Positions 33,102 to 62,942 of a stretch of DNA of 64,000 bases are shown here, one piece after another; position 1 is the first letter of the stretch, and each line of letters begins with the position of its first letter. The DNA is from Octopus vulgaris (lineage: Eukaryota), in assembly GCA_951406725.2 (NCBI GenBank), contig CATOCA020000001.1, positions 10,044,001-10,108,000 of the forward strand, in the 5' to 3' direction. The position numbers were made by a program, and so were the translations under genes. The notes under the pieces were generated by a model that was not told the DNA's origin, did no database searches, and worked only from the letters and a program-made list of their open reading frames with translations.

Positions 33102-33179
33102 ATGGGCTCAATCGTTAATAAAATTAGAAATAATGATGTGGAAGGATTGAAAATCTTACTTGAGGAGGAGCCAGGCCAA
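33102..33179 (+). CDS. Exon 1 ([26 protein letters not shown]), ankyrin N-cap
   Basis: Acceptor ttttattcag ends 33096, ATG at 33102, donor GTAAGT at 33180, phase 0. The acceptor implies an upstream exon that I could not locate. Confidence 0.75.
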
Positions 33180-35724
33180 GTAAGTTGTTCTGTTTATTGC
33201 TTTCTCAAATTTGCCTATTTCTTTATTATTTTATACGCAATTTGAAAACTTCAAACTAACTGCATATATTTCTCCATAATATTTCATTTTTTCTCCATCT
33301 CTTTCCGCTAATCGCCATCAATGTTATAATGAAATTCTTGACCAAGGCAGCGAGTCGGCAGAATCGTTAGCACGCCAGGTGAAATGTTTAGCAATATTTC
33401 CTGTGTTTACGTTCTGAGATCAAATTCCGCCGAGGTCGACTTTTCTTGTTATCCTCTCTAGGTCGATATATTAAGTACTAGTTGCCTGCTGCGGTCGGTC
33501 TAATCAACTGGACCCTCCCCACCAAATGTCAGGCCTTGTGCCTTGAGTAGAAAAGAATATTATTCTTGACCAAATTTTGAGCATGGCAAAGTAGATGGAA
33601 TGTGAATGAGAGAGAAACCCATCATCACACACTGCAAGGGAGTATTCTGATATGAAATTTTCAGATGAGATGAGAAACAGATGGAGTCCGTAGATGGATG
33701 GTGACTTTTTAAAGAAGTCCTCTTGCCATACACAGTCGAAGGTTTTACTGATGTCAAGGGCTACACCATTTTATGCAGATTTTGCCAAACATGAAAACAC
33801 TGGTGTGTCACATAGGTACCAAGCCCCTCTTGATCTGGCTTTATAAAATTGTACTGGTGAGCCTTGAATAATGAAAGATAACTAAAGGGACAAATATGAT
33901 GGTTGTTTGTGACTTTTTACTTCATAATTGAAACATTGGAAGTTAGAATGACTGGATGGTAGTCACTCGATAAGATATTGTCTGCAGGAATATTGAGCAG
34001 GATTTCCCAGTGAGGTCAGTGCTACCAACGCGTGGGGGCGCTGTGGGAAAATATTATATGAGGTTATGTATATATGAAACACAAAGAATGTGTATCCGAG
34101 TTTAACTGAAGCTATGTATCAACGGTTGGATCAGTAAAGAAAACTAAGTGGTGAAGCATCAAGTATTCACTTATTCTGGTGAAGGTTCTGTGGTAAGTAG
34201 TCACCCATGTCACGACTAGGATCGAGAGGGAAATTAATGTGATCTGGTATTAACTGAAACGACATTAAAAATGTGTTATATAGATTCGTAGCAAGGAAAG
34301 GGACATTGGGAAATCCTTGGTAAATGCAAACGTGAGAGAATGAATGAAGAAGAGAGAGGAAAGGTAGAGAGAGATAGAAAAGGGAAAGAGAAAGAGGAAG
34401 AAAGAGAGAAAAGGCAATGAGAAGCAGAGAGAGAGAGATAAAAGTAAAAGAGAAAGAGAGACGAAAAAGAAAAAGGTTGGGTGAAAGAGAGAAAAGGAAT
34501 AGTGAAGGAGACAGAGAGAGAAAGAAAGAGAGAAAAGTAATAGAGAGAGAGATAAAGAAAGAGGAAGAAAACGAGAGAAATAGAGAAAAGTGAAATAGAA
34601 AAAGAGAGAAAAGAATGGGAGAGAGAGAAAAGCGGGAGAAAGAGAGAGAGAGAAGATGAAGGGAAAGAGAAAGAATGTAAGAATAGAAAGAGAAAGAAAT
34701 GAAAGAGAGAGAGAGACGGAGAGAAAAGAGAAAAAAGAAAACGAGAAAGAGGAAGGAAATGAGAGAGAGAAAGAGAGAAAAAGAAAATGGGAAAAGAGAG
34801 AGTGAAAGAGACACGGAGAGAGAAAGAAAGACAGAGAAAGTGAGAAATGAAAGAGGAAAGAAAACGAGAAAGAGAGTGAGAGACAAAGAGAGAAAAGAGA
34901 GAGAGAGAGAGAGAAAATGGAATTTCTCTATTTCACATGTCCTCACTTTCTTCATTACAGATTAATAAACCTATTAATGAAGATGGACGAACTCCTTTAA
35001 TGTTGGCCTGTTATGAGGGCGCCGATAGAAGAATCATCGAAATATTGATAAAAGCAGGAGGAGAGGTGGGAAGAAAAGACTCAATTGGTTATACAGCTTT
35101 ACATTGGGCTGTGTTTGGGTAAGTTGAGAATCAAGTAAAATCTGCAGATGTGTTTTTGTTTGTAAATTTGTTGCAATTGCAGACACAGGTTCAATGTCCA
35201 AAGACGCCATAGTTGTGGGACAACAGCACAACAGCAGACTAGCAAACAACAACAACAACAACAAGCTTCTCTTTAGTCATCGATCCAATTCATTAGTCAT
35301 TATTCAATCATAACAATCCCGAATATGATGATGATAACGGCGATGATGATGACAATGACGGTATTGGTGATGTCGACCATGATGATGATGTTGTTGATGA
35401 TGTTGATGATGATGATAATGATGATGATGATGATGATGATGATGACGATGATGATGATGACTGTGATTATGCCGATGATGATGATTATAATTATTGTGGC
35501 GATGAATGATGATGATGACGACGATGATGATGATGATTATGATGATGACGATGATAACCACGATGATGAAGCTGATGATGGTGATGGTGATGATGATGAT
35601 GATGATGATTATGATGATGATGATCATGATGTTGATGATAACGACGATGATGAAGATGATGATGGTGATGGTGATGATGATGATTATGATGATGATGACG
35701 ATAATGATGATGATGACGACCATG

Positions 35725-35756
<32 letters not shown>

Positions 35757-35790
35757 AATGACGATGATGAAGATGATGATGTTGATAATA

Positions 35791-35832
<42 letters not shown>

Positions 35833-36198
35833 TGGATGATGATGATGATGATGATGACGACGATGATTATTATGATGATTATCGTGATGATGACGATGAT
35901 GATGATGATTATGATGTTATTATTATGATGATGATGATGATAATGATTATGATGATGATGATGATATTGATGAGGTTGATCTTGCTGTTGATGATGGTGT
36001 TGATGATGATGATAGATGCGATGATGATGATGATGATGATGACGATGATAATGATGGTGATGATAATGATGATGATGATGATGATTATGATTATAGTGGT
36101 AATGAATGATGATAATATTGATTATGATGATATTGGAGATGTCAAAGATGATAATGATGATGATGGTGTTGGCAATGAGGGTGATGATGATGAAGGCT

Positions 36199-36237
<39 letters not shown>

Positions 36238-36966
36238 ATGTCAATGATGGAGGTGGTGGCAATGATGATGATGGTAATGATGTTGATGAACATGATATTG
36301 ATGATAATAGTGCAGGTGATGAAGATGGTGATGATGATGAAGGCGATGATGATGATGGCGATGATGGCGATGATGATGATGATGATTTTGTCAATGATGG
36401 AGGTGGTGGCAATGATGATGATGATGGTAATGATGTTGATGAGCATGATATTGATGATAATAGTGCAGGTGATAATGATGATGATGATGACGATAATGTT
36501 TCGTCTCAAAGCCAAAATATTTTCATATTTAATGTAAATTAGTCAATGTTTCTATCTTTTACTCTCAGTGGTCGACCTCATCCTGTGGAGATCTTACTAT
36601 CTCGGGGCAGTGAGGTAAGTATCTTATTTATATCCTTTCGTATGTTCTACTGAAGACGAAAGAATCTATTATGAGATTAATTTCGAAATTGATTCAATAT
36701 AGAAATAACGAACTTTTCAAAAAACATTCTATCGTCCGGCTTTCCCCGGTTTCAGTTCTTCGTGTTTTTTTTTTTCTGTAGCGAGTAAATAATATGTGGA
36801 AATTGACGATTTAAAAAAGTCTCTTATCAGCAAATTGTCATTGAAATACTTTTCTTTAGCCCTTATTTATAAGTTGTTTATAATTTAACTGTAAAGTTAT
36901 TTTAATATGCTGCCACATTTTTTGATGGAATATTTTTTCTGTAAAAAAAACTTCATCCTATATTAG

Positions 36967-37054
<88 letters not shown>

Positions 37055-37364
37055 TGAAGGCACGTGGCTAAGTGGTTAGGGCAATCGGCTTACGATTGTA
37101 AGGTCGTGAGTTCAATTCCCGGCGACGAGTTGTGTCCTTGAGCAAGACACTTTATTTCACGTTGCTCCAGTCCACTCAGCTGGCAAAAATGAGTTGTACC
37201 TGTATTTCAAAGGGTCTGCCTTGTCACACTCTGTGTCACGCTGAATCTCCCTGAGATACACGTGTCTGTGGATTGCTCAGTCACTTGCACGTTAATTTCA
37301 TGAGCAGGCTGTTCCGTTGATCAGATCAGCGGGGACCCTCGTCGTCGTAACTGACGGAGTGCTC

Positions 37365-37431
<67 letters not shown>

Positions 37432-38802: not shown

Positions 38803-40666
38803 TTTTGCTGCTCTATGTGTTTATTTATTCAGTTATTCATCCTATATGCGTGTGTTTGTGTGTGTGTATAAATATATTTATATGTACATATGTATGTGTG
38901 TATACGCGTGTGTGTATATACAATAGAAATCTGCATTACCTACTCCCCACCCCAATCATTCCACCTGTTTAATTAATTTCATTCCTTCTCTTCTCTTTTT
39001 CTGTGAGTTTTTCTTTTAATTCTTCACCACCCGACTCCCCTTTCAGACACCATTTTTAATGTTTTTATTCTTTTCTTTTTCAGGTCAACGCACAGTCTAA
39101 TGATGGTCGCACACCGCTGCACTTGGCCTGTTGGTTGGGATCCTTGAACACTGTCGAGCTGTTGCTGGGTCACAATGGCATCGATGTCAATGTGGTTAGC
39201 AACAATGGAGACACACCACTGCATGATGCAGTTCAGCGGTAAGTCCCCATTGGATCTGGAATATCCAAATCTGTTTCTTTTATGTTTTCAATAATGTTTG
39301 TTTCTTTTTCATTCAGTCATTCATGTCATAATCCCACCATGGGGTCATTGTCTTTCTTCTCTCTTTTGCACTGAAATTACACTGTAATCTACTTTATTAA
39401 TTAATCATCACCATAATTGTTATTGTTGTTGCCTGACTGGACTCTTTACTTCATCTCGTTCTCCATTTCCTCAACGTCACAGGTTCAAATCCTCTCTCTT
39501 CTTCCTTTCATCCCATCTTGAACTACTTTCTCTCTCTTTCTCTTTTTCTTCCTCACTCTCTCTCCTTTGTAGTTTCCCTATTTATTCCGACCCTGGGCTA
39601 AATAGAGAATCATCCTCTTACAGTATTTACATTTGTCTCTTTTATGTTCCATGTTCAAATCCTACCAGAATATTTACTATCACTCTGGGGTCAATATAAT
39701 CTGTACCAGTAATACCCAGGGGTTCCTTTAATAAACTGTCTTCCTTCTTTTCTCCAGTTCTTGTTTCTTATTACTTTTAGAGAAAATAAATTGTGTTATT
39801 TTATTTACGACTCTTTACGTTCAGAGTTCAAATCCTGCCAAGGTCAACTTCTTCCATCTTTGCAAGGTTGATAAAATACAATACCTGTCATGTACTGGGG
39901 TTCAAATGATTACCTGTAGCCCTTCTTTCCTTCCTAAATTTCATGTTTATATAAGCTGTCAGAATTCTTAGCTGTATTTTTCCTGTCTTTACATTTCTGG
40001 GTTTACTCAGGTGTGTATATAACATTGTTCTACTGTGTAGAGTGTGTATTGAATAAATATATATGTGTGTGTGAGTATGTGTGTAATAATTGCTGTAATT
40101 AAGTTATTGTGACCTAATTGCATTTGTTTTCTTTAATGACCTAATAATTATTATCTCAAGCTGTGTGATGTTTGTTTTTTTCATGTTTTTCTTTCCTTAT
40201 CCTTTACTTTCAGCCAACACTATAATGTGGTGTCTGTGATGCTGAACAAGGTTAGTTAATAAATATATATTATATACACTCTCCAGTATTATATTGATCT
40301 GTATAATATAAATTTTACCAATGTACCAGTGAAATAATGGAGATAGATTTAATCACATGTACTACAAAACCCTTGTGTTTGTGGAGGATTTGTATATTGA
40401 TCATGTTGATGTTGATATTAGCGGTGTTGACAGTCCAACTGACCACCACCACTGATAATAATATCTTTAATTGTCAAATGAAACTAGGTCATTATGAGAT
40501 GAACCAAAATATAACAGACATCATGTATATATATATTTTAATTGTTTGTGACTTTGACTGCGGCCATGCTGGGGCATCACCTTGAACTTTTAGTCAACTG
40601 TATCGATCCCAGTACTTTTATTATTTTAAGCGTATCACTTACCCTCTCAGCCTCTTTGCTGAACCA

Positions 40667-43524: not shown

Positions 43525-44585
43525 ATATAGCTAGCAGCACCTCGAAAGTAGTAATTACACAAACGAGGGTAATCTGCTAGCTATTCGTTAGGTCAACATT
43601 TAGTGGCAGATACGGCAACTCCAGTTGCCAACCATAAAGTAGAAAGTAACTTTTTTACTGCATATCAATCTTCAATATGGCAAAGTTTACAACCTTCTGC
43701 GGATTGTGAAAAACTTACTATCATCTTACACGTTCATCATCCTTGGATTTTAACTCTAAATACCGTAGGTTTTTGGATTATAGCATTGCACAGAACAACC
43801 TGCGAAACGAATCCGAGAACAATTAGCAAAGTATTTTCTTTAGAACAAGACATCCGAGGTGATGCATTCTGCACCGGAGGATGCAACAGAACCCGTTGTA
43901 CAGAATCCAACCATCAAAGGACCAGATGGTCGAAATGATGTGTGTGTGCGTGGGCGAGTGTACATTAATTTTACGGGAGTGGAACTAACTGCCTCAGCAG
44001 TTTTATGAACCCCTTATTAATATAGCAACATCAAAAGTAAACATTAAGCGAATAATTCTTCTTTACTACACTTGATCCGTTAATCATGTCTTCACCCTTG
44101 TTCAGTTCTCCTAAAACTTACTATAGTCATGAATCTTTATTCCTGACTATAATATGACAACTTAAATTATGTCTCTAATATACACTCAAAGGAAGTTATG
44201 GAGGTACTTTACGAAGGTTCTCTTTACTGACTGACATCAAGTGTGTATGATTAGTTTGGTCAAGTACCCAGTAGAAGACAGTAATAACACATTGGTATCT
44301 ACCCGAATTTTCATGCAGATTTTCATTTTCTATTTTTAACTCTACAAAGGATTATGTTCAGTTTGACATCAAGAACCATCAGAAAGTGACACCATTGCTG
44401 TTAGCTGTCTCTGAGGGCCACCTCAGAATGGTGCACCAGTTGATAGCAAAAGGTGCAGACGTAAATGTTGTCAATAATGAAGGCAACAATTGTCTGCACC
44501 TGGCTGCGAAGACGAAGAGGTTTCATTCCGAGGTTGAACCTTTAAGTATATTAGATAAGGTAAGTTTGGAAATTGTTTATGAATA

Positions 44586-45820: not shown

Positions 45821-47773
45821 GTACAAATCATGCAAAGGCATTCACATCTATCCATCACTATTGTTAACCGTTGCAGAATTCAAGCAACTCCTTGCTACCC
45901 GCATAAATAAAGGACACTTGAAATGTGGGACTATTTTTTCAAACAGTTGATGAATAATTGTGTATTGTAGTAATGTCTACTTTGGTGTGAGAAACCAGTG
46001 ACCTCTCCACCTACTGGAATTTTTCATCCGACAAACAGTTTGAACAGTTTATCAACTATAATGTGTTGGTGCACAAACTCAATCGTGACACCAGTTCGTT
46101 CTTCTCTTTCGTCACATTCATCATCAAAACATTTTTTTATTAATTCATCATCATCACGTTTTTCTATGCTGGTAGACGTTGCACTCTTTGACAGGAACTG
46201 GCCAGCTGAGGAGCTATCAGGGCTCCATGTCTGTTTCCGTATGCTTTCTATGACTCAGTCCTTTGTCATCTGCTCTGTGAGGCCCAACGTCTAATGGTCC
46301 TTTCTCACCACTTAATCACACGTCTTCCTGGGTCCACCCCTTCCGCACTTTCCTTCCACAATCAAAGATCTGCACTTCTTGATGCAGCTGTCTTCATCCA
46401 TATGCATTGCATAATAATACCATCGAAGTCTTCTCTCTCGCACACAACATCCGATGCCTTATATATCCAGCTTTTCTTTCAAATCCACTTAATTATGGAA
46501 ACATTATTGATCTGTTTAGATATGTCTGTGTGTTTTTGATTTAGTTGTTATTATGTTGTTGGTATTCTCTTTTCTGGTATAACTTACATTATTTGGGTTG
46601 TTATATTTATATATACAATACTCTTCCGTAAGTATTTCTCTTGCTATGGCCATTTGGCTTTATCAAGCCAGTTGTAGAGATAGGTTCTTGTTGGTTTGTT
46701 GTCTTTCATTATTGTGACATTTCTGTCCTTATACGTTGTATATTTGACTTGATGTTATAATAACTTTATATTGTGTTTTAATTGAATAGTTTGTGACATT
46801 TGTGATTGGCAAGTAAATATTTACTCATTAAATATCATTGTTAAGCAATAACGTTGACCACTAATGTGCGTTTTGTTCAATATAATGATCATAATTTTTG
46901 TCTTAATGTAGAACGTAAAGTAAAAACAAATGATAATGAAAAGTGGACTCAACTAAGAGATGATGTAAGAAATCAACTCTGTGTGAATAGTTTAATCACT
47001 GGGGAAACAAACTATGTGTAAATGTAGTTGAACTGTTGTTTAATTTGGAGCATCTTTAGTATATGTTTGTGTAATCTTTAACTCATCATTTTATATTTCA
47101 TCATTTGTAGTTCTGCAAGGATCTGAAACTGGGAAACAAAGAAAGGAACTCTGGCGTGGTGGTTGCCAGTTACCTAGCCCACCACGGGGCCAACTTTTAC
47201 TGTAAAAACAAAAGTGGTAGAACACCATTGGACCTAATAAAAAATGAAAATTTAAAAAAGATGTTAAAGACGTTATTCTCACCGCAGTAAGTATTCACTG
47301 GCAATGACAAGATAAACCATTACATTTTCTGTTTTGTATATACCATGTTTATATGTTTCTATTGTTTTAATTCTACTGATACATTATACTGTCTTAGTGG
47401 CTTAATGAAAGGTTAGACAACAACAGTAAGAAGAACAATAAACGATATGCAGTTGTTAAGCTAATTAAAGAAAGAACACTATTTTGATTACATTCAAATG
47501 ATTGGTTGTGTTGACTGTTATACCTCTCTTAAAATCCCAACCCACCTCTCTCAGTTCCCTATGTTAAAGATTTGGGACCAATGAGAAAATGTAGAAGTAA
47601 ATAGTGAAGTGATGGAATTTATCTCTCTACCAACAGATTATTCCTCTGTTTTCTCTGTCCCAGCCAGTCATGTCCATGTGAGCTATCCTGAGAAAATCGC
47701 CTACAAACACATACAATGAGTGTACATAAATGGATACATGCATACATACGTATTTATACATGCATACATAGAT

Positions 47774-49809: not shown

Positions 49810-52800
49810 CGTGAATTATATTTCTGGAATATATGTTGTTCACTTTGTGTAAATCAGTTTTTGTGATGTATCAATGTCATGACATATACTTATTAATATT
49901 TTTGTCCATTTATATATATATATATGTGTGTGTATATGTGTGTGTGTGTATCTGTGCCTGTGTCTGTGTGTCTGTGTTTCTGTGTCTGCATTTATATACT
50001 CACAAATTCGCCCATATGTAATTGTTTAATTGTGGTGTCGCATAATATTCTCTACTGTAAATATGCACACAATGTAATATTTGTTATAAATGAATGTTAT
50101 TAATGGGATGTGTTCATGTTTTTGTTCCTCAGATGTGTGTTTTGTGAAGACGAAGTGGCCACAGAGACGTTCTTTCCATGTAAACATCTTTCGCTGTGTA
50201 AGAAATGCTGTCCCCAAAGATACCTAAACGATGCCCTACGTGTGGACAGAAGATAACGAGCAAAAATAGTTTGGGTAATAATACTGTATGATCTGTCTGT
50301 TTGTCTCATGGGCTTTATGGTGTGGAATATTGTATTTCATGTTGTTGTGTAGATCCAGTTCTGATTAATCAAGCACACTTTTGATAAAAGATGTTTCAGG
50401 TGTCTTTTCTCTGTCATATTATGTCTCTCACTACTCCCACTAAACATTGTTCTTGTCCAATTAGAAGACTTGTCACTCTTCAAGATGGCTACTTTCTGCA
50501 ACATAAAAATAATAAAGAATACTGAATTATAAATGGTGACTAAATACCAATAAATCACCAAGGTTCTCTTAGTAAATACCGACATCTTGTGTGTGATTAG
50601 AGTGATTAATGATTTATCAATATCTTCGGAAGCCGATAATTAAAAACAACTGCATTTATATGAATATCAGAGTGAGCCTTTATAAAATAGGAGACTCAAT
50701 AAGAAAATCTCAACTGAGGGTTTAGGGACCAACATTAGAGAGGGGACATCAAAAGGGTGGGAAACTTTGATTGATGTATAGATTAGTATTCCTGAGTATC
50801 AGTTCTTCTGAACCGTTTCAAATATTTTCACAGCAATAATGTGTGGACGACAAGTTTTATGTCGTTAATGAGGTTTTGTGTGAATGTAGTGTGTTAATTT
50901 AGAACACGAGATATCACTTCCTGTTAGACCTGATGTCACTTTCTGTTCGACCTGCTTTAATCTGGAGGATGAATGACATTGAAATATCTTCAGATATTTC
51001 CCCACATCTGATTACATTCTGGAGAACTGTGATGTGGGTAATTAAGATTAAAGATTACTAATAGTAACGAATAACAAAGAGAACAGGTATATATATATCC
51101 TGAAGTGGTGTTTCGTGTTTGGGGTTGGATATTCGATGCGCAACTTGGTTGACATTTGAATTTAGCAGAAGATGAGACGAATATTGATTAGAGATCTCTG
51201 GAGGTGAAATGACGATGTCTTGTCAAAGATCTGGAACAAACATAAGAAAACCAAAACGAAACTAAGAGAAAATCTGTTGTTATTAGGGGATAATTAAACG
51301 AGATAATTTCAGAATTGTTAAAATTGTTGGATGCCTTAAGAGACAGAGAAGGGTTGTTAAGTGTAGCTTATGCTGTTGTGGACCTAAATTTTGAATAATT
51401 ACATTGTAATACTGTAGAAATTATACAAATGCTCTCCAAAAGCATGATGGTCACCAGTTGACCAATGATGATAGGATTGTCTAACAATAATAAAACATCG
51501 ATTATTAATAATGATAAAGACTTTTTTCTACAGTGTTTAAAACATGAAATTGTTTATTTCAGAGGGTCCAAAGTCGTCAAAGCCGGAAGTCCAGATGTTG
51601 GCAGAACCACCTGGTGAGTAGAAAATAACTGTACCTAATTATGTTAGACCATATTACTCCATAAGAAGCATAGGGTTGGCTTCCCGGTTCCCCCGGCTTA
51701 TATATTCTTCCATGAAGAGGACGCTAGTCATCATCATTCATCATCATCATTATTTAGCGTCCACTTTCCCTGCTAGCATGGGTTGGACGGTGCAACTGGG
51801 GTCTGGGAAGCCAGAAGGCTGCACCAGGCCCAGTCTGATCTGGCAAAGTTTCTACGGTTGGATGCCCTTCCTAACGCCAACCACTACGTGAGTGTAGTGG
51901 GTGCTTTTTACGTGCCACCGACACAGTTGCCAGAGGAGGCTGTCAAACGGTCACGGTCGGATGGTGCTTTTTTACGTTCCATCGGCACAGAGGTCAGACG
52001 GGCGGCACTGGCAACGGCCACGTCCAGGTGGCTCTTTTACGTACCACCGGCACGGGGGCCAGGTGAGGCTGGCAACGGCCACGTTCGGATGGTTCTTTTA
52101 CGTACCACCGGCACTGGTATCACAGCTACAATTTCCATTGATGTTGATCGATTTTGATTTTGATTTAGTCCGCTGTAAAATTACATATTTTCGCCAGCTG
52201 AGTGGACTGAAGTGTTGGACATATTTTAATCACGTGATTTTGACTCAGAGGATTTAGTAACGAGGATTTATGTGTACTGGGCAGCCCTGATGTGCCTAAC
52301 TTCCCCAGTGAATGATTTCCTTCAAACCGCTGAAAATGTGTTTGATACTCTGCATCAACGCCATTTCATAGCAAAGACTCAAACTAGTCTCCTTATTCAT
52401 CAGAAAGATGATCTGACATCAAATCAAGCAACAGTATTGTCAGACTTGGCAGAAAATTATAGTTTTGTAGTGAAGGATTCGGTGCAAGGGTTTCATCGGA
52501 ACAACTCCCAGGCCAATATATTCATCCATTCGCGATCTGTTATAAGACTGGTTCAAACCCACAATGCACTTCAATCTGTGTCATATCTGATTGTTTGAAA
52601 CATGACAATACCACAGTGCATGCTTTTATTACGAGGGTGATATCGCATATAAAGACAGAACTTCCATTCATAAACATCTCCTGTACTTCAGTAACGGAGC
52701 AGCCGACCAATACAAGAACTAGAGACACCAAACAAATCTCTGTCATCATCAGAATGATCAAGGACTTGAAGCGGAGTCGTATTTCTTTGCCATGTCATGT

Positions 52801-54353
52801 GGAAAAAGGACATATGAGGGAATCAGTAGGATGGTGAAATGTGTTGCTGAAAAAGCAAGTCTACAAGCAGCCACGGAAAGACATTTTCTCACAGGTTGCA
52901 AGGTGTATGGCTGAGCATGTGCAAGCATTCCAGCGATAATGTTCTTTGACATGTCGGCAGCCGATGTCATCCGAAATGAAAACAGCTTCGACTTGCTTTC
53001 ACGATTCAGCAGCTCAGTGAAATTAGTTGGCACACGATCCCATCACCGCTTCGTTCCGTCTTCAAGATCTGATATTTTAACGAAGAAGATCTTTGCACTG
53101 CTATAATGTAAGGATGAAGAGTTACCTGTAGTAGAGTGAAGTTTAGGCAAGTGTATCCTCTTTGAGGACACCTGTTATCATTTTCTGTTCCACCTGTGTA
53201 GAAGTAATCTTCGCTCACCTTTATAAACACTGCTCTATTAAGGTGATTTAAAGCATTTCATGCATCAGCTGACATTCTGGTGAACAGTGATGCAGGAAGT
53301 TGAAAACTAATCATTACCTGCAGTAATGTTTAAGAAGGAGATCAGGTGTGAGTGTTTATACAACTTAAAGTGGTGTGTGTAATGGTTGCCATTGGAATTA
53401 AGCAAAGCTGAGAATAATGTTGGTTAGAGAAGGGCAGAAGTGAGGGCACAATTTCACGTCATATGTTTAGTGCAGATATAAGAAAAGAAAGACAAACCTA
53501 ATCAAAGATTGGTGTTATCAAGTGATAATTAAATGAAATAATGACACAGTTGTTAGATGACGTCGAATGTCTCAAAAGATAAAGGAAATTTAGGAAGGCA
53601 GTGTAAATATTAAACTATTACATGGTAATCCTGTTCAAACTATAAACATTCTAACCAAAACCATTGTCTTCAACAGTTGATTATCTATGAAAGAAATCTC
53701 TGATATAAAATATAGATTATTAATAAAGATAGAGACATTTTTTTTAAATGTTTGAAACTTGGAAATATTCATTTCAGTGAATCGAACATTTGAAGACAAG
53801 GAAATGCAGACACTGGCTGAACCTGTTGGTGAGTATAAAATAACAGCACTTGATTGATTTCTGTAAGGTTTATCCCCTGCTGAACTATTTTGATATCAGA
53901 ATGATAAAGATCAGCTTCCATTCTTACCTTTCAATGGGAAGTTTTAGCTTTAAACTAATCATATTAAACATATCGATACTATTGACATTTAATAAAGTAT
54001 CCAATCAGGTTAGCACGGTTGGTGAAGTGGATAAATTAGAAGCAAAATAGATTTCAGGTTCTCTTTTGGAACAGCCAAATAATATAAGTTGTGGTTTAAC
54101 AGGTGAAGTAATGACAAAGGTTTTGTTTGTTTTATACTCTTTTACTCGTTTCAGACTGTCTCCATGCTGGAGCACCAACTTTTTAGTCGAGCAAATCGAA
54201 CCTAGGACTTATTCTTTGTAAGCCTAGTACTTATTCTATCTGACTCTTTAGCCAAACGGATAATTTACGTGGACGGAAACACACCAGCACCGGTTGTCAA
54301 GCAATGTTGGGTGCGGGTGAAACACATACACACATACATATATATATATATAC

Positions 54354-54397: not shown

Positions 54398-56749
54398 GAC
54401 GGGCTTCTTTCAGTTCCCCTCTACCAACACCACTCACAAGGCTTTGGTTGGCTCGAGGCTATAGTAGAAGACATCTGCCCAAGATTCCACACAGTGGGAC
54501 TGAACCCAGCACTATCGGGTTCGTAAGCAAGCTACTTACCACACAGCCACTCCTATGCCTGTAGTTTAAAAATGTTTACTGACAAGTTATTGTTGTTATT
54601 TTACCTGATGTCTCTCATAATCTGGCAGACTTACAATGAAACGGGTTCCAAATATGACCACCCTCTTATTTTTCACTGATAATAAATCTATCATTGCATC
54701 CACTAAACATTGTCTTTATTCAAGTGGAAGACATCGGTTTGCTGCTCAGAAAACCGTTGTCTGTTTCCCTTTCTCCAAACTTCATAGAGGCTGTATGATA
54801 CAATACAATCAAATACATTCAAAGAAACAGTGGACGGGTTGAAAAAGGAAAGGATAGTGAACACCTTAGATAAAAGCTCCTTAAGAACCCTTCTGATGGT
54901 ACTAGGATATTTTTGCCGATGTTAAGTGGGGGAGATTATAATGCACTAAAGATGAAGTGAACAAGAATATACGGGAGACATAAGAGGACGTAGTGTTTCT
55001 TGGTTACAAGACCACATCCATACGAACCATGATTATAGTCCCTATGTTTCAGTATGTTTTGATGGTATTGTGTTTTCGATTCATTTCATAGGAAACACTA
55101 TGTTGTGGAACATTTCTGTATACGTATTTGACACTAATTAGATGTATTTTATAAAACATTTTAGAAACATTTTCAATTTGTTGACATCAATGATCATTAG
55201 TGACAAATGTGGTAAAACAGTGACGGTGGAATGGGGTGTGAGAAGGCTTTCGTATTCCTTGTAATGTTGTTAACTACGACATCAGGAAGACGGTTTCTGT
55301 CAGGTAAATATTTCTACAGAGGTGTCCATTTCGTCCCCTCAGATTTGATTGAACTGAGTTCTCAGCCCATTCAGAGGCACCGCATTAAGGGGACATCAAA
55401 TGAGAGATGAAAGTTTGGTTGATATATAGAAGAGGGTTGTCAGAGATATCCTAGAGTTTTCAGAATCACTTCCATTCTACCATTTCAGATCTTTGCACTG
55501 CTATAATGTAAGGATGAAGAGTTACCTGTAGTAGAGTGAAGTTTGTGCAAGTGTATCCTCTTTGAGGACACCTGTTATCATTTTCTGTTCCACCTGTGTA
55601 GAAGTAATCTTCACTCACCTTTATAAACACTGCTCTATTAAGGTGTTTTAAGGCATTTCATGCATCAGCTGACATTCTGGTGAACAGTGATGCAGGAAGT
55701 TGAAAACTAATCATTACCTGCAGTAATGTTTAAGAAGGAGATCAGGTGTGAGTGTTTATACAACTTAAAGTGGTGTGTGTAATGTGTTAATGGTTAGATT
55801 ATGGATAACCAAACTGGTTGCCATTGGAATTAAGCAAAGATGAGAATAATGTTGGATAGAGAAGGGCAGAAGTGAGGGCACAATTTCACGTCATATGTTC
55901 AGTGCAGATATAAGAAAGGAAAGACAAACCTAATAAAAGATTGGTGTTATCAAGTGATAATTAAATGAAATAATGACACAGTTGTTAGATTATGTCGAAT
56001 GTCTCAAAAGATAAAGGAAATTTTGGAGGACTGTAAATATTAAACTATAAACATTCTAACCAAAACCATTGTCTTCAACAGTTGATTATCTATGAAAGGA
56101 ATCCCTGATATAAAATATAGATTATTAATAAAGATAGAGAAATTTTTCTATAATGTTTAAAACTTGGAAATATTTATTTCAGTGAATCGAACATTTGAAG
56201 ACAAGGAAATGCAGACACTGGCTGAACCTGTTGGTGAGTATAAAATAACAGCACTTGATTGAATTCTGTAAGGCTTATCCCCTGCTGAACTATTTTGATA
56301 TCAGAATAAAGAGCAGCTTCCATTCTTACCTTTCAATGGGAAGTTTTAGCAGTAAACTAATTATATTAAACATATCGATACTATTGACATTTCATAAAGT
56401 ATCCAATCAGGTTAGCACGGTTGGTGAAATGGATAAATTAGAAGCAAAATAGATTTCAGGTTCTCTTTTGGAACATCCAAATAATATATGTTGTGGTTTA
56501 ACAGGTGAAGTAATGACAAAGGTTTTGTTTGTTTTATACTCTTTTACTCGTTTCAGACTGTCTCCATGCTGGAGCACCAACTTTTTAGTCGAGCAAATCG
56601 ACCCTAGGACTTATTCTTTGTAAGCCTAGTACTTATTCTATCTGTCTCTTTAGCCAAACTGCTATGGTACGGGGACGGAAACACACCAGCACCGGTTGTC
56701 AAGCAATGTTGGGAGGACAAACACATACACACATACATACATATATATA

Positions 56750-56783: not shown

Positions 56784-59700
56784 CATACATACATACATAC
56801 GACGGGCTTTGGTTGGCTCGAGGCTATAGTAGAAGACTCTTGCCCAAGGTGCCACACAGTGGGACTGAACCCAGAACCATCAAGTTCGTAAGCAAGATAC
56901 TTGCCACACAGTCACTCCTACGCCTGTATTTTAAAAATGTTTACTGACAAGATATTCTTGTTATTTTACCTGATGTCTCTCATAATCTGGCAGACTTACA
57001 ATGAAATGCGTTCCAAATATGACCACCCTCTTATTTTTCACTGATAATAAATCTATCATTGCATCCAGTAAACATTGTCTTTATTCAAGTGGAAGACGTT
57101 GGTTTGCTGCTCAGAAAACCGTTGTCTCTTTCCCTTTCTTCAAACTTCATAGAGGCTGTATGATACAATACAATCAAATACATTCAAAGAGACATCGGAC
57201 GGGTTGAAAAAGGAAAGGATAGTGAACACCTTAGATAAAAGCTCCTTAAGAACCCTTCTGATGGTACTAGGATATTTTTGCCGATGCTAAGTGGGGGAGA
57301 TTATAATGCACTAAAGATGAAGTGAACAAGAATATACGGGACATATACAATGACCCAAACGAAGTCAACTTTACCTGCTCATGTTTGTATTGAAATGTCC
57401 AATGAAACCAGTAATCAAATATTTCAGCTTTGCGATTTCAGCAAGACACAAGTATAAAGCTTAGTAAAGAAGGCAAGAACGGAGATTGCAACGGGAGATG
57501 ATTGTGTACCATAGAACGTGTACAAATGTTGTGCCCAGGTGTTATAAGCATTAATTACTATTTAGGGAGTTGTGGGATAAAGGTGAACTGATTAATGAAT
57601 GTTGCAAGACAAAAGGATTTTATTCATCAAAGTAAGTTAATGCAAAACTAAGTGGCCAATTAAAGCCAATTTCAATCTTGAATGGCAAGATTTACAAGGC
57701 TGTACTTGCTAAGTGATCAGCTATATATCTACAAAATAATGATTATGTAAGATGAAATATCCAGAAGGCTGGCATCTCCAGAACCCCTGTATGTAGAACA
57801 TGGATTTTCAGTTTGGGACTCGATAGAAAACACAAAGGGAAATTAAGGAATTTGAATGTGTTATGGCTTGAGCTGGTTAATGCTTTTGGCCCTCTATCAA
57901 GCAGTAAATATCTCCAATCAAGTGTTGATGGATGCAATGAACTTCTTTTAAATATGAGAGAAGAGTAAGGATTTGATGAGGGGCTGCTATAACAATTTCA
58001 ATATGTGTTTCATGAGAGAAAATTTCACAAAATATTTGCATCATTTTGAAATTGGAATTGTTGTAGTTTGCAAAATATCAGTCATTTTGTTTGTGCCTCT
58101 TATGGAGATGTTCCTTTGATCAGCAGATTGATCAAGAGAGACCGGTTCGAGTGAAATAACCTAAGAAGGAAGACATCCATGGAGGATATAAAAGTACCAT
58201 GTAAGAGATTTGGCACAGACATAAGAAACAAAAGATAAAACTAAGGAAACAACAGTTTCTTCAATTGATAAATAAACGAGAAAATTGCTACGTTACTTGA
58301 TAATGAATGTAGGATGTCTTAATAGAGAGAAGTCTAGGAAGGTTAGTCTGTTTGGTTATGGACGTAAATATTGAGCTATTCCATGGGACCACGAAAGAAG
58401 TATAAAAATAATGGCCATTAATGATAAGAATGACTAACATTTATAAAATAAAGACCAATTAACAGAGACAGAGAAATTATACTATGACGTGTAAAATTTG
58501 GAAATATTTATTTCAGAGTCTGTAAACCTGGATGAGAAACTTCTTCATAGTGTAGCAAAGAAGTTGGGGAATAAATGGCAGCAACTTGGTGAGTAAAAAA
58601 AAGCACTTGATTTCTATAAATTTTGCCATTATTTGAACTTTTGTTTGTTAGAATGACTGAGAACAGGTTCCATTCCTAATTTTCTTTCGAATGGTTAGCT
58701 AACGATATTACTGAAATATCACCGAGTATGGTGAAATATATAAATTAGAAGATACACAAGAGTTAATAGTGTCGTTTGGGACAGGAAACTAAATTCTATT
58801 ATTGTTTACAGGTAAACAGGTGAGTTAATGTCAATGCTTCTATTTGTTTACATTGCTATTTAATATACTGGTAGGTTGTTGTTGTTGTTTAGGCAGATGT
58901 ATGCCTTAATCTGGCAGACTTAAGAGGAAAAGTGTCCCAGGTGTGACGCCGTTCTTTTCTTGGCAGAACAGGACCACATTATCAAATGCAACATTCTTAC
59001 AGGAGACTGTGTATCTCGTGAGACATGTTGTAGTAACTCTCCTGGTTAGCCTGTTTCTCAATATTTATTGTAGTCCTTTAGCCCCAGGACAACCTATAGT
59101 CCTCTCTCAAACCAGACAGGCCCTATTGTTGATTATTTTCCAGGGTCGCCTGAACTCAGCCCTTTAAGTTAAGGAAATACAAAATATAAAATAATCATCC
59201 TAACAGAAGTTGTAAAGACAACTTGACTTTGTTTGTCAATTGAAATCATTTCACTCTTCTTCTTTGCTTTACAAACCTCATTTGGAAAGGCATGAACATC
59301 ACAATAAACCATGTCTCCTTGTCTCAAAGTTTAACAACAGAAAGTATCTTTTATACAATGCTCCTAGTATTTACAGTAATGTATTCCACCTCCCTATGGT
59401 ACCTATATGCATGTAGGTAGAATGCACCATAGAGAAATGCCTTTATGTGGGACGTTGATCTGTGCTGGTGACTAGACTTGAACCTTCGTTCCCTGACACA
59501 AAAGGTCATGACAATCACCGCAGTCATCTGATAGAAATGATTTACTTAAATTAAAAAAGGACATCATGTATGTGTGGCCAACTTGTTGTATCTTTTGAAT
59601 TCATATAAAATATACCAGTCATATACTGGGGTAAAATCGATTCACTAACAGCAGTCCATTATCCTCATCTTCCGTTCATTTTTCTCCCACAGTTGTGTTT

Positions 59701-62700
59701 CTTTGTCAGGTTTAACTTTTTCCCTTCCATTTAGATCTCCTGCCATTTCTTTACCCAAATTTTATTTTTCACACTTCCCCTCCCCATATTTCTACCATCT
59801 CCTCTCTCATGTATTAGGGTGACAACTAAGTTCCCTCTATTTTGTTGTTTTAAAATTTAAAAGGTCTTATAAAAAAACCAGCTAATTAATGAATAATGTA
59901 TTCACCCTTGTTGTTTCCAACTTCTTCCCAACGTTCAACAAGATTTGTAATACCTCGTTCGTAGAAATCACCCGATTTCGACTGGAAAAATTGATCCAAC
60001 CAAGCTCTCAATTCTGCATCAGTATTGAAGGAAACTCCGCGTATATCATTTGAAAGAGATCGAAAGAGGTAGAAATCCGTTGGTGCCAAATCAGGAGCGT
60101 ACGGCGGGTGTGGCAGCACTTCCCAGCCATGCGTTTGAATGGCTTCCTTGGTTATATTGGCGATGTGAGGGCGGGATTTATCGTGCAGCAGAAGAACTCC
60201 ATGCTGACGATTAGGTCTTTTCTCTTGAATAGCTGTGTTGAGCCGTTGCATCATTTGAACATAGAGTTCCGTGTTAACCGTTTGGTTCCGTTCAAGCAAC
60301 TCGTCATGGATAATTCCTTCCCAGCCCCACCATACGCACAACATCGCTTTACGCAGATGAAGATCTTTTCACGCGCGGTGTCGCTTGTTTACCGGGGTTA
60401 AGCCATTCCTTACGCTGCTTCATATTGATGTACAGGCACCATTTTCCGACTCTAGTAACGATTCGGCCAAGAAATCGTTGCCTGTGTCCATGAGTTGAGC
60501 GGTGACGAGCAAACAAGCCAGCAGAAATTGTGGCTCGTTGATTTCTGCTGTTGTCACTTAAAGCATGCTGAACCCATGCTCCATACTTCTGAACCTTTCC
60601 CATCGAGTGAAGATGCTTCTCTATAGCAGTGTGAGAGCATTCCATTTTCTCTGACTGTTCCCCTGTCATTTGACGTGAATTCTCGTGCAAAAGTTGGTTT
60701 AATCGCTCTTCATCGAACTCAACTGGACGGTCAGAACAAAGTGCATCTTTGAGGTCAAAATTTCCATTTGTGAACATGGCATACCAATCACAAGCGGTTC
60801 TTTCAGTTATGGCACCCTCTCCATACACTGTACAAATGTCGCGAGCAGCTTTTGCAGCCTTAGAACCTTGATTAAAAGCAAAAAAGTAGGTGTCGAAAAT
60901 GCTCGTTTTTCTTAACTTGACATTCAGTTTTAATGATCTGAAAATAAACAAAAATTAACTAAAATTAACTACAAAGAAAACAAAATAGATTCCAAAATAA
61001 TTCAAAATAGAATTCTCAAAAGCAAAAATAGATTCCAAAATTTAAAAACGCCATAAATTCCAAAATTTATAAAACCCGCGGGAACTTAGTTGCCAACCCA
61101 ATACTATCTCTGCTTCTTTGAAGACAAAGTTTTTCTTCCTGCTCATCTTTTGTCCAGCATCTCTACACATGAATATTTTACTCCTAGTGAAGTATGTCCA
61201 CCTCATTTTATGCCTGTTTTTAATACATTTTCCACATTCAATGCAATATTGCACTTTACAACTACACATCACTCTGCACTTCATCTGGAAACAGAATCGC
61301 TTCAATGCAAATAGACACAACAGCTCTCTGTACAATTTTGCAGTTCAGTTACTATGCTTTCCGCATAGTCTCCTCCACTTCTAATCATACCTGTTAGGTA
61401 ACAGAAACCAGCAACTACGTCTTTCTGAGTTGATATTACTTCAGATTCATTTTGTATATTTCATACTTACAAACCCCTTGCCTTCTTTCAACTTCTCTCT
61501 GATCCCACTGTACACTTTGTGTGCATTGAATACACCATATAAAAATCCTATTACCCCGACCTTTCTTTTCCTGCATATCGAATATGATAACTTCCCAGTT
61601 CAGGTAGATATTTATGGATACAGTAGTTCCTTCAGGATCTAACTGTTGTTGGCATGTAGATGGCGAGTCCTGCCTTCGTTTTTTGCTAAAACACTTCTCA
61701 TTGTAAGGGTTACCTTGAAACCTCTCCATTATAAGAATTTCTCTAAAGAGTGGAAGAAATCATTATTATGAGTCATGAATACAGAAAGTCTAAGCTGTTG
61801 CCTTTTATAATATGTGATGTGTAGCAATCACTATGAAATTGTTTGTGTGGTTGACATCATTCTACCATGCATTGTATGTATTTCTATTTTAATTGGTCCA
61901 GGTGTACCAAATATTATTGTTATTATTTGACATTTCAATCTCAGCTTTCTAGATATTTGTAAATATGACAATTTGAGGCATTGACCATGGAATGTTATCA
62001 AACGTCGGAAATAGACTCCTTTTGAGGGGTGTCTGGAGTAACGTTACTCGACAGGGTGTGTAGGCTGGAGATTTGGGTGTTCCTCCAGGTCAAACGGCTG
62101 CTTCTCTGCATTGAGAAGTCAGAACTCCAGTAATAGAGAAACGTGATTAGAATGTCACAAAAATGAATCGCAAAACGGGTTCTTGAAGCTGAGCCAACTG
62201 ACAGGAGACCCCTAGGGGTAGATCGAGACTAGATTGTTGGATAAAATCCATAGTTTCAATTGGTCATGTTTGAGAATGGATTCAGAAAAGCTTCTGATAG
62301 GACCCGACGAAGGAGATTCCTAAAGACTCTACCCCTGCAACCCTTCTATGAATAAAGGACAGAGAAAATGGATGGATGGATCAAATCGTGTAACTGTTGG
62401 TCTCTATTGATTCTTTAGGCTCTCATACACTCTTACCCACAGAAAAACACTTCTCCTTCCTGCTCTTTACCAAACATTTTCTCGTGTAACTTTCAGTTAA
62501 TTCTTTTTCAAAATGTTTTCTCCATTTCCAGCCTTTATTTCAAAATGTTTGTTATTTTTGTCAACATCTTTAGAAACAGAGACCAATGTCTTCTATTTTC
62601 CCTGTTTCTTAAGTATTTCTCATTCCTCTAATCACATGATTTCTTTGCTATATTTATAACAACCCACCACACACGTGTGTTATATTATCGGTAATGTTGT

Positions 62701-62942
62701 TTTAATTATATTTCTGTATTGTTGTATCTTTTGCAGGGAGAGAATTAGGAATTAAACAAGTTGACCTGAACATTATCAAGAGTGACTTCCCTAATGATAC
62801 AGCAGAACAAAGTTTCCAGATGCTCTATAAATGGTTCCAGTGTTGTGATCCAGCGAATCGTACACTTAAAACATTAACGGACGCTCTTAAGGAATTCGAG
62901 TGTTCCGATGCACTTGAACGTCTATCATTAGACACAAATTGA
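33102..62942 (+). CDS. Multi-exon gene: ankyrin repeats + RING (C3HC4) + death domain, MIB2-like E3 ligase/adaptor (13 coding exons, ~477 aa if one 1-nt frameshift is corrected)
   Basis: Manual splicing of 33102-33179, 34961-35118, 36569-36614, 39084-39238, 40214-40250, 44350-44559, 47111-47286, 50133-50274, 51563-51613, 53778-53828, 56183-56233, 58517-58588, 62737-62942. All introns are GT-AG with polypyrimidine tracts and compatible phases (0,2,0,2,0,0,2,1,1,1,1,1). Sum is 1433 nt, one short of 478 codons. Ankyrin TPLH motifs, RING cysteines and death-domain W/L pattern are present. Confidence 0.85.
34330..34920. repeat. ~590-bp polypurine (GA-rich) tract in intron 1
   Basis: Almost exclusively A/G on the + strand, ending ~40 nt before the exon 2 acceptor. 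Confidence 0.95.
34961..35118 (+). CDS. Exon 2, ankyrin repeats ([20 protein letters not shown]...[11 protein letters not shown])
   Basis: Acceptor ttcattacag, donor GTAAGT, two ankyrin TPL/TALH motifs, phase 0 to 2. Confidence 0.9.
35306..36500. repeat. ~1.2-kb degenerate (GAT)n microsatellite in intron 2
   Basis: Visible directly; higher-order duplicated block at ~36240-36330 and ~36390-36480. Confidence 0.97.
36569..36614 (+). CDS. Exon 3, ankyrin helix 2 ([15 protein letters not shown])
   Basis: Acceptor tttactctcag, donor GTAAGT, 46 nt, phase 2 to 0; completes the repeat begun in exon 2. Confidence 0.85.
37058..37365 (+). mobile_element. SINE family C (tail ...gtcgtcgtaaccgacggagtgc)
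   Basis: Homologs at ~6630-6892 plus 7480-7545 (split by a family B insertion), 29030-29370 and 63448-63770. Confidence 0.8.
37807..38740 (+). mobile_element. Two head-to-tail SINE family A copies (37807-38210, 38255-38740), intron 3
   Basis: Two heads and two ccagcatggcc-type tails. Confidence 0.85.
39084..39238 (+). CDS. Exon 4, ankyrin repeats ([51 protein letters not shown])
   Basis: Acceptor ttttttcag, donor GTAAGT, consensus ankyrin motifs, phase 0 to 2. Confidence 0.92.
40214..40250 (+). CDS. Exon 5 ([13 protein letters not shown])
   Basis: Acceptor tactttcag, donor GTTAGT, 37 nt, phase 2 to 0; supplies the missing ankyrin helix. Confidence 0.8.
40550..40925 (-). mobile_element. Diverged SINE family A copy, intron 5
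   Basis: tttgactgcggccatgctgggg tail and cttctttcagttttcatttaccaaatccact body in reverse orientation. Confidence 0.7.
41944..41978 (-). ncRNA. Hammerhead-like motif in a dispersed ~200-bp element (41850-42045), intron 5
   Basis: Reverse complement is identical to 20290-20324. Confidence 0.6.
42880..43100 (-). mobile_element. Old RTE-like LINE remnant
   Basis: Decayed 'EEVL...P....' type segment on the minus strand; weak. Confidence 0.35.
44350..44559 (+). CDS. Exon 6, ankyrin repeats ([24 protein letters not shown]...[10 protein letters not shown]...ILDK)
   Basis: Acceptor ctctacaaag, donor GTAAGT, 210 nt, phase 0 to 0. Confidence 0.9.
45345..45380 (+). ncRNA. Degenerate hammerhead-like motif, second family
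   Basis: cttt-GTGTGGA-a-gagc(gtat)gctc-GAAA-cg-TT-aaag; stems intact, core damaged. Confidence 0.4.
46147..46500 (-). mobile_element. RTE-clade LINE 3' remnant
   Basis: Minus strand reads VRERRLRWY...[27 protein letters not shown], typical of the RTE C-terminus, with a (GAT)n tail. Confidence 0.7.
47111..47286 (+). CDS. Exon 7, last ankyrin repeat, Mind-bomb-like ([28 protein letters not shown])
   Basis: Acceptor tttgtag, donor GTAAGT, phase 0 to 2; resembles the MIB1/MIB2 'ACFLA.EGAD....N..G.SPLDL' segment that precedes the RING. Confidence 0.88.
47940..49439 (+). mobile_element. Tc1-family DNA transposon, decayed, with ~190-200-bp IR/DR-type TIRs
   Basis: TIRs ~47940-48132 and ~49240-49439, each with two ggg..aaa.a.tattcgt direct repeats; TA flanks. 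Transposase remnant 48295-49212 reads [40 protein letters not shown], with stops and frameshifts. Confidence 0.92.
49646..49681 (-). ncRNA. Hammerhead-like motif, second family, A6U core variant (element ~49584-49755)
   Basis: Reverse complement is cttt-CTGTAGA-a-gagc(gaag)gctc-GAAA-tg-TA-aaag. Confidence 0.5.
50133..50274 (+). CDS. Exon 8, RING finger (CVFC-x11-CKH-x3-CKKC...CPTC) with apparent 1-nt deletion near 50212-50230
   Basis: Acceptor ttcctcag. The first six ligands are in the entry frame, which stops at TAA 50254-50256. [15 protein letters not shown] and a phase-1 GTAATA donor are in the shifted frame. Confidence 0.85.
51563..51613 (+). CDS. Exon 9, 51-nt symmetric micro-exon ([17 protein letters not shown])
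   Basis: tttatttcag / GTGAGT, phase 1 to 1; flanks homologous to exons 10-12. Confidence 0.7.
51740..52160 (-). mobile_element. SINE-like repeat family D with internal ~60-bp GC-rich tandem repeats
   Basis: cggttggatgcccttcctaacgccaacc block, with a reverse match at ~32320-32450; repeated ttttacgtaccaccggcac units; (CAT)n tail. Confidence 0.6.
52260..53085 (+). mobile_element. Decayed DNA-transposase fragment (possibly Sola-like; superfamily uncertain)
   Basis: [24 protein letters not shown], then frameshifted FS.GAA.QYKN-like and FFA.SCGK-like motifs. Confidence 0.6.
53778..53828 (+). CDS. Exon 10, 51-nt symmetric micro-exon ([17 protein letters not shown])
   Basis: ttcatttcag / GTGAGT, phase 1 to 1, no stops. 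Confidence 0.7.
54135..54560 (-). mobile_element. SINE family A inside the duplicated cassette (paralog at ~56535-56925)
   Basis: Present in both duplicate copies, so it predates the duplication. Confidence 0.85.
56183..56233 (+). CDS. Exon 11, identical duplicate of exon 10
   Basis: Same 51 nt and splice sites, inside the second copy of a ~2.4-kb-period tandem duplication. Confidence 0.65.
57700..58200 (+). mobile_element. Decayed RT remnant of an R2/NeSL/Hero-like retrotransposon
   Basis: [13 protein letters not shown] (cf. WLDL.NAFGS) and [18 protein letters not shown] (cf. GI..GCTIS.ILF). Confidence 0.5.
58517..58588 (+). CDS. Exon 12, death domain N-terminal helices ([25 protein letters not shown])
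   Basis: tttatttcag / GTGAGT, phase 1 to 1; death-domain 'VA..LG..W..LG' motif. Confidence 0.88.
59814..61101 (-). mobile_element. Mariner (DD34D) transposon, 1288 bp, decayed; TIR resembles the mellifera subfamily
   Basis: TIRs ttagggtgacaactaagttccc / ttgggttggcaactaagttccc with TA target duplication. Transposase 59886-60951 has [15 protein letters not shown] and [13 protein letters not shown]; the first catalytic D is lost and the ORF is frameshifted. Confidence 0.95.
61960..62382 (+). mobile_element. Old RTE-like LINE 3' remnant
   Basis: Decayed SGVTLLDRV...[10 protein letters not shown]...VIRM...RRP.GR motifs and a (GGAT)n tail. Confidence 0.5.
62737..62942 (+). CDS. Exon 13, rest of death domain ([32 protein letters not shown]...[14 protein letters not shown]...) to TGA
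   Basis: Acceptor cttttgcag, phase 1; 'ELG...I..D.P....EQ..QML..W' and 'L..AL' death-domain motifs; stop 62940-62942. Confidence 0.9.

Follow-up and report, generated by a model that had tools for sequence, protein, structure and literature searches.

What kind of protein is made by a gene that joins ankyrin (ANK) repeats, a RING and a death domain (DD) in one chain? The question is raised by a 64,000-nucleotide stretch of the 2.8-Gb genome of Octopus vulgaris, here called the window (C31:10044001-10108000; contigs are numbered C1, C20, C26, C29, C31, etc.), in which such a gene runs from position 33102 to position 62942. A sequence-only reading of the window had described it as a Mind bomb-like E3 ubiquitin ligase that lacks the Notch-ligand-binding N-terminus and is recruited through its DD, possibly as a member of an expanded family. 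Our analysis points, with moderate likelihood, to an octopod family of at least 70 genes encoding variable intracellular sensor-adaptors, probably immune, and not ubiquitin ligases.

Gene architecture, descent from MIB2 and family size

Alignment of database proteins to the window and inspection of splice sites gave a gene of 13 exons, from an ATG at 33102 to a TGA at 62942, with GT-AG borders at all introns (Table 1). Splicing and Pfam agree with the proposed architecture of about six ankyrin repeats, a C3HC4 RING and a terminal DD: Ank is matched in exons 2, 4 and 6, Death in exon 13 (36.9 bits, cut-off 22.6), and the in-frame part of exon 8 scores 26.2 bits for zf-C3HC4_3 (cut-off 27), the intact paralogue L002 scoring 36.7 bits. 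The exons had also been called phase-compatible, which does not apply to exon 8; this exon is 142 nt long and breaks the frame, a frameshift that had been overlooked and is discussed below. With an X set at the break to restore the frame, the gene reads as a 477-amino-acid product, which is collinear with the O. sinensis RefSeq model P0007 (59% identity over residues 1-476) and the O. sinensis model P0265 (65% identity over residues 26-475), and in P0265 Ank, zf-C3HC4_3 and Death are all above the Pfam cut-off in a single chain. For the DD exon, the closest named proteins (93-94%) belong to Octopus vulgaris and O. sinensis. At the 5' end, an acceptor AG sits 5 nt upstream of the exon 1 ATG. 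In the 43 kb upstream of the gene neither a MIB exon nor a family exon was found, and a genome search for MIB_HERC2 gave 10 matches among 22 candidates with zero on C31, C29 and C30, so the missing Notch-ligand-binding N-terminus is borne out.

The Mind bomb-like origin can be narrowed down to MIB2. Octopus MIB2 (C26:2.51-2.57 Mb) has two MIB-HERC2 domains, ankyrins and two RINGs; its counterparts of exons 6 and 7 have sizes and phases equal to those of the family, and its RING1 exon has phases 2-1, again as in the family. All of the distinct family RINGs (35/35) score highest against MIB2 RING1, and in a RING tree the terminal RINGs form a separate clade (support 98/93). Because the introns are common to exons 6-8 and MIB2, we conclude that the family descends from MIB2. 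MIB1 was considered as the parent and is ruled out by exon structure and the RING comparison. MIB2 and the family part ways past the phase-1 intron: in MIB2 a coiled-coil RING2 exon follows, in the family a set of symmetric phase-1 micro-exons and then a DD divided over two exons; the terminal coiled-coil/RING exon has been lost, and the micro-exons and the DD stand in its place. With MIB2/MIB1 the family thus shares a homologous ankyrin stack and first RING, and intron positions in three exons, and the same genome holds ANK-RING-RING paralogues without a DD (4 loci including MIB2; P0017). It differs in lacking both the substrate-binding MZM/REP N-terminus and the ubiquitin-transferring coiled-coil terminal RING, in its added DD, and in number, with at least 70 copies versus one.

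Two further gene groups touch on this origin. Other ANK-RING-RING genes of MIB2 descent, with the terminal RING retained and no DD, lie at C26:0.75-1.32 Mb, C20:45.04 Mb and C27:36.36 Mb; such paralogues are possibly intermediates, and may be active ligases. Five DD-only genes with a disordered N-terminus, named RIPK1-like by NCBI, lie at C26:12.81-12.93 Mb (L182-L186; P0122, P0126, P0127). Their DD intron is at the same place as in the family, O. bimaculoides, O. sinensis and Argonauta contain relatives of them, and they are candidate DD donors or partners. In these DD-only relatives a glycine/asparagine-rich stretch looks RHIM-like by eye, without Pfam support.

To count the family, 147 matches to the DD exon (150 of 163 candidates scored) and 130 matches to exon 7 (of 144) were paired with 99 RING positions, hits distant from any family exon being excluded. 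The pairing rule called for a pre-RING exon, then a RING, then DD exons in order within 60 kb, and its counts are lower bounds. By this rule 70 of the 130 pre-RING exons belong to intron-bearing ANK-RING-DD loci, and the suspicion of an expanded family is thereby confirmed, with at least 70 such loci in the genome. The other intron-bearing loci are 17 ANK-DD (RING absent or undetected), 10 ANK-RING, 4 ANK-RING-RING including MIB2, and 4 unpaired, while 25 of the 130 are processed (intronless) copies. Two small contigs carry 51 of the 70 loci, 29 on C31 and 22 on C29. When 40 of the 70 were sampled, 28 were lesion-free in the exons examined, with exon 6 intact in 26/29, exon 7 in 33/40, the RING in 37/40 and exon 13 in 34/40. 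The types of exon 7, RING and DD occur in 24 combinations among 41 loci, their distance correlations are only 0.25-0.35, and the O. sinensis models P0007 and P0081 show similar module combinations; exon modules have been shuffled between paralogues. A RING-less ANK-DD member is found in both O. sinensis and O. bimaculoides (P0289, P0183). Some members seemingly have two DD exons in tandem (C31:7300957 and 7309064, P0001), and the same DD type ends an LRR-GPS-7TM receptor model in O. bimaculoides (P0118) and occurs in a RING-DD-LRR-DD model in O. vulgaris (P0079), each being either a real fusion or a gene-model merge.

Members from O. bimaculoides interleave with those of O. vulgaris in the tree (with weak deep support), which indicates that the family is older than the O. 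bimaculoides split. Outside Octopus the architecture was hardly encountered. A DD profile run against 1.84 billion representatives gave 235 matches, and among the best 150, which were examined, a MIB-type exon 7 or RING together with the DD was almost confined to the top group; of 30 proteins looked up, 27 were from Octopus and 1 from Argonauta (DD only). In a second search, with 8000 candidates scored, there were 98 matches of 84-517 amino acids, and the named high scorers were all from Octopus. The weak matches of the DD profile included an ANK-ROC-DD protein (P0182), and in none of them was the MIB2-type last ankyrin region found with a RING. In Atlas searches the matches were confined to ANK-RING clusters and generic DD clusters, with scores of 0.82-0.91. 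The family therefore appears octopod-restricted in the protein data searched, squid, cuttlefish and nautilus genomes lying outside the direct search, and within these data the description as a lineage-specific chimera stands.

The gene-family expansions described so far in octopus concern mainly neural or regulatory genes. Our literature search found no description of the family; supplements and most subscription journals were outside its scope, so an expansion listed in a supplement might be missed. The words 'ankyrin' and 'MIB' are absent from PMC9068888, PMC10700109 and PMC4199593. The family is thus apparently undescribed, and in public annotations its proteins go by automatically assigned labels, for example 'E3 ubiquitin-protein ligase MIB2-like', 'RF_0381' or 'RIPK1'.

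Ankyrin face, death domain and linker

Selection was tested with purpose-written M1a/M2a codon models (not PAML) on a FastTree topology, with empirical-Bayes assignment of sites; exons 2 and 4 were sampled as the best 30 of 39 and the best 30 of 53 matches, respectively. For exon 2 we found an omega of 9.7 on 19% of sites (twice the log-likelihood difference, 2dL, 230; 27 sequences), and for exon 4 an omega of 5.3 on 25% of sites (2dL 102; 29 sequences). Among the 22 high-posterior sites, 18 (10/10 in exon 2 and 8/12 in exon 4) fall on ankyrin positions 2, 3, 5, 10, 13 and 14, which we take, from the ankyrin consensus and not from a solved structure, to be the hairpin and inner-helix binding face. 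The selected positions are rich in W/Y/F/R, and O. sinensis proteins are variable at the same positions. Exons 7, 8, 12 and 13, for which a different and broader locus set was used, gave no positive-selection signal (2dL 0-2.7). A signal in exon 6 (2dL 15.2) was rejected as lying within the range of recombination false positives, the highest 2dL in eight null simulations, six of them with block recombination, being 14.3. A tree-free comparison gave pN/pS values of 0.54/0.20 (exon 2) and 0.31/0.19 (exon 4) at surface positions, versus 0.09/0.19 and 0.07/0.12 at the other positions; for the surface we assumed the DARPin positions plus position 10, and as these were fixed after the alignment was seen, this test is not blind. 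We conclude that strong positive selection acts on the ankyrin exons at the N-terminal end, and that most of the selected sites belong to what is predicted to be the binding face. In exons 2 and 4 the family has repeats that diversify on this face, as do the repeat sensors of NLR/STAND receptors. The concave ankyrin face of MIB1, in contrast to the hypervariable one of the family, is highly conserved according to the accessible part of a preprint (bioRxiv 10.1101/2024.03.01.582834).

The terminal domain is modelled as a death domain. AlphaFold2 run on the O. sinensis homologue P0002 (31 aligned sequences) gave a confident helical bundle with a pLDDT of about 90-98 over the DD, and the top Foldseek matches to this domain were all DDs (Ankyrin-G, RAIDD, RIPK1; probability 1.00, best E 1.3e-3), while Fas and RIPK1 were the top sequence-profile matches. 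A single-sequence AlphaFold2 model of P0007 was poor past residue 284 and was left unused. Between RING and DD, the linker micro-exons carry a motif, [KR]-x-[TVIM]-Q-T, which occurs 55 times in 51 distinct linkers and at least once in 32 of them, compared with an average of 2.6 and no more than 10 in shuffled linkers; the linkers are duplicates and hence not independent. This QT motif fits described LC8 preferences, and many anchor-bearing peptides nonetheless fail to bind (PMC6607443, accessible part), so that LC8 binding by the linker is a lead. In the family proteins scanned, Pfam gave no match to a nucleotide-binding domain (NACHT/NB-ARC), a BIR domain, or a transmembrane or signal-type domain, and the proteins appear to be cytosolic. 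In the genome, NACHT gave only 2 matches among 25 candidates, on C17 and C19.

The copy in the window and its surroundings

Four read runs, two RNA-like without library or tissue record and two DNA, were compared with window positions 50000-54250. Both RNA-like runs, and neither DNA run, show the RING exon joined to exon 9 across GT-AG borders, and in run X3 the coverage of the RING exon bin is more than 100-fold that of the intron behind it. The read contigs, which lose rare variants, carry the letters of paralogue L009 at 21/21 diagnostic places; splicing is therefore seen at the family level, and the frameshift of this allele is not addressed. Among 22 words sampled from the locus, the best run contains a fraction of 0.82 and no run all of them, and none of the runs containing such words is recorded as RNA, a result that weighs neither way. 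That RING and DD share a transcript is further indicated by decayed intronless copies in two tandem arrays on C1, in which exons 6 and 7 run on without a break through the RING start and the linker repeats into the DD, and by a DD within 640 bases in 18 of 25 intronless copies, so that a family mRNA once joined the two. Both domains also stand in one model in RefSeq entries of O. sinensis and O. bimaculoides. The arrays lie at C1:216.93-216.97 Mb and C1:102.71-102.74 Mb (L013-L015), and the unit of the first, about 3.6 kb, also contains an unspliced exon-6 piece.

The assembled exon 8 lacks a single base, within a C/A run near 50214-50220; the resulting frame meets a TAA at 50254 and leaves a 327-amino-acid product without the last RING Cys pair and without the DD. 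Among 11 close paralogues exon 8 is in frame in 9, with one base more in L005 and two bases fewer in L008, and in 4 copies the length of this run deviates by +1 or -1. Over the family, 23 of 210 exons are broken. Exons near an intact paralogue contain 20 indels, of which 18 affect a single base and 8 are located in runs of at least 3 (background 19%), and the 210 exons hold about 3 stop codons. Single-base indels that outnumber stop codons are typical of consensus errors, so this pattern modestly favours a consensus error. A sister locus (C31:2.07-2.09 Mb; 98.6% identity over 4.6 kb surrounding the DD exons) has its RING in frame, an intact DD, and exons 9, 10 and 12 identical to those of this gene. 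On balance we lean slightly towards an intact copy and an assembly slip. For this copy only, a recently dead allele, with a real frameshift that would lead to a truncated ANK-only product or a degraded transcript, is a serious possibility that we hold to be a little short of even. It agrees with the stop codon in the assembly as it stands, with L008 having the same short run, with birth-and-death families holding many dead copies (12 of the 40 sampled loci bear lesions), and with private intron substitutions that mark the locus as a distinct copy; it agrees less well with the intactness of all remaining exons and splice sites, with the indel-heavy, stop-poor lesions of the family, and with the slippage of the same run in either direction.

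Table 1. Exons of the ANK-RING-DD gene, in window coordinates
Exon	Position	Strand	Content
1	33102..33179	+	ATG, N-terminal ankyrin cap; family models begin at the identical Met
2	34961..35118	+	Ankyrin repeats 1-2, hypervariable binding face
3	36569..36614	+	46 nt, second helix of repeat 2
4	39084..39238	+	Ankyrin repeats 3-4, hypervariable binding face
5	40214..40250	+	37 nt
6	44350..44559	+	Ankyrin repeats 5-6; 210 nt, phases 0-0, both as in the MIB2 exon
7	47111..47286	+	MIB-type last ankyrin region; 176 nt, phases 0-2, both as in the MIB2 exon
8	50133..50274	+	RING homologous to MIB2 RING1; 142 nt, 1 base short; TAA at 50254
9	51563..51613	+	51-nt phase-1 linker micro-exon; joint to RING exon seen in RNA-like runs at paralogue level
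10	53778..53828	+	51-nt phase-1 linker micro-exon with LC8-like QT motif
11	56183..56233	+	Identical duplicate of exon 10
12	58517..58588	+	72 nt, N-terminal helices of the death domain
13	62737..62942	+	Remainder of the death domain and stop

The identity of exons 10 and 11 is the product of a 1.9-kb tandem duplication. Repeats are found in and around the gene. Intron 2 contains a 1.17-kb (ATG)n-type microsatellite (35325-36498), intron 7 a Tc1-like remnant recognised by eye (48350-49210, + strand; no Pfam match in the piece scanned), and intron 12 a mariner-type transposase remnant (59889-60954, - strand; Pfam Transposase_1, HTH_48). Upstream, a long interspersed nuclear element with endonuclease and reverse-transcriptase reading frames interrupted by stops lies at 14400-17900 (+ strand), with fragments at 2700-3350 and 11800-12550, and a unit of about 2.1 kb is repeated three times in tandem at 18400-24650 with 94-95% identity.

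RING activity and the likely role of the family

In MIB1, ubiquitin is transferred by RING3 alone and a fragment of ANK-RING1-2 shows no self-ubiquitylation, and the second RING of MIB2 is homologous to MIB1 RING3 (bioRxiv 10.1101/2024.03.01.582834, accessible part). In human MIB2, a RING2 mutant loses cFLIP-L ubiquitylation and a RING1 mutant does not, and cFLIP-L is bound by the N-terminal region (PMC7815719, accessible part). The family has neither of these functional MIB2 parts. The RING that it keeps is RING1 whereas human activity resides in the terminal RING, which makes the term 'E3 module' doubtful; by analogy with human MIB1 and MIB2, ligase inactivity would be predicted.

An active E3, as the sequence-only reading had it, would pick variable substrates (e.g. 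pathogen proteins) with its ankyrin face, ubiquitylate them with its RING, and dock on death-receptor complexes through its DD. This now seems rather unlikely to us. It would fit the invariant RING cysteines, the purifying selection on an exon that is intact in nearly all sampled loci (omega 0.52), and the P-x-C-R of 15/37 RINGs, which resembles active RINGs; moreover, dimerisation driven by the DD or LC8 could replace the lost coiled coil, and a DD is paired with a RING in mollusc IAPs too (PMC8917759, accessible part). These features also tell against our own view of the RING, as does the fact that RING1 inactivity is known for human proteins only, and for MIB1 only with UbcH5B (bioRxiv 10.1101/2024.03.01.582834, accessible part), and ligase activity in some subfamilies is possible. 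What makes the E3 model hard to uphold is the kinship of the retained RING with one that is dispensable in human MIB2 and inactive in MIB1, the persistence of RING-less members in two species, and the reading CPTCG or CLKCG in the window subfamily, few members of which have the Arg of P-x-C-R. Furthermore, RINGs of this class use a C-terminal tail, and the family RING is internal, without one.

If the proteins are sensor-adaptors, the N-terminal repeats of each paralogue would bind a different fast-changing ligand, e.g. a pathogen or parasite protein. Binding, perhaps aided by LC8-type dimerisation via the QT motifs of the linker, would cluster the DDs, which could then nucleate DD adaptors such as FADD/RIPK1-like proteins or the related DD-only octopus proteins and thereby drive caspase-8 or NF-kB signalling. 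The role of the RING would be structural.

Several points weigh against this reading in addition to those on the RING. The proteins carry neither a nucleotide-binding domain nor any other known switch that could keep signalling off. The reads extend only from the RING to exon 9 and stem from paralogues, not from this copy, and nearly a third of the sampled loci (12/40) bear a lesion. Mosaic patterns may be inflated by mis-joins or by pairing of the first DD exon only. The codon-model code is our own, and 1 of the 6 recombination simulations gave a false positive, with a 2dL about equal to the exon 6 signal. Finally, while the immune role that had been proposed becomes likelier given the positive selection, the same signal also fits non-immune conflicts.

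The same design of variable binder and DD might instead serve to recognise gametes or non-self tissue (allorecognition), to suppress selfish elements, or in the self-avoidance of neurons. Neither positive selection nor expansion is specific to immunity; the DD is nevertheless nearest to Fas, RIPK1 and RAIDD types and the proteins appear cytosolic, and we give this alternative only a small probability. The same small weight falls to decoys or dampers, i.e. catalytically dead MIB2 mimics that would soak up effectors aimed at MIB2 or DD proteins, or cap DD filaments to limit death: such a role would be in keeping with a lost catalytic RING and with a binding face under selection, and both MIB2 and death domains are targeted by pathogen proteins in the accessible part of the literature, yet a decoy should resemble the host target, whereas the variable face departs from MIB2 and differs between paralogues, and several distinct DD types are maintained.

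The sensor-adaptor reading can be set beside known systems. Proteins with ankyrin repeats and a DD (ANKDD1, ankyrins, DAPK/ROCO, NF-kB p100/p105) and PIDD/RAIDD-type sensors are alike in having a repeat domain plus a C-terminal DD; these genes are single or low copy and conserved. Fungal NLRs with ankyrin sensors, in the accessible part of Dyrka et al. (2014, PMC4986451), are alike in positive selection on inner helices and beta-hairpins, in combinatorial domain assortment and in a death-type output; the octopod family differs in having no NACHT/NB-ARC, in placing the sensor first and the effector last, and in its independent animal origin from MIB2. Mollusc BIR-DD-RING IAPs, in the accessible part of Witkop et al. 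(2022, PMC8917759), are likewise lineage-expanded and combine a DD with a C3HC4_3-type RING; here the family differs in having ankyrin in place of BIR and an internal RING ahead of the DD, and IAPs are least expanded in Octopus (PMC8917759, accessible part).

We tentatively suggest, and with somewhat less than even confidence, that octopods, which are nearly without NACHT-type NLRs, made a substitute cytosolic receptor repertoire from MIB2. It would consist of 70-100 genes with faces varying at the positions randomised in DARPins, with reshuffled modules of sensor, RING, LC8-motif linker and DD, and would signal by DD clustering without a nucleotide switch. The family may then be a case in which an enzyme was turned into a sensor by exon shuffling, its catalytic end swapped for a DD, with candidate intermediates present within one genome. 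To the question of how cephalopods, which have no antibodies, recognise a diversity of pathogens, a set of at least 70 genes that combine a cell-death signalling domain with binding faces as variable as those of antibodies would contribute a concrete, testable candidate receptor repertoire.

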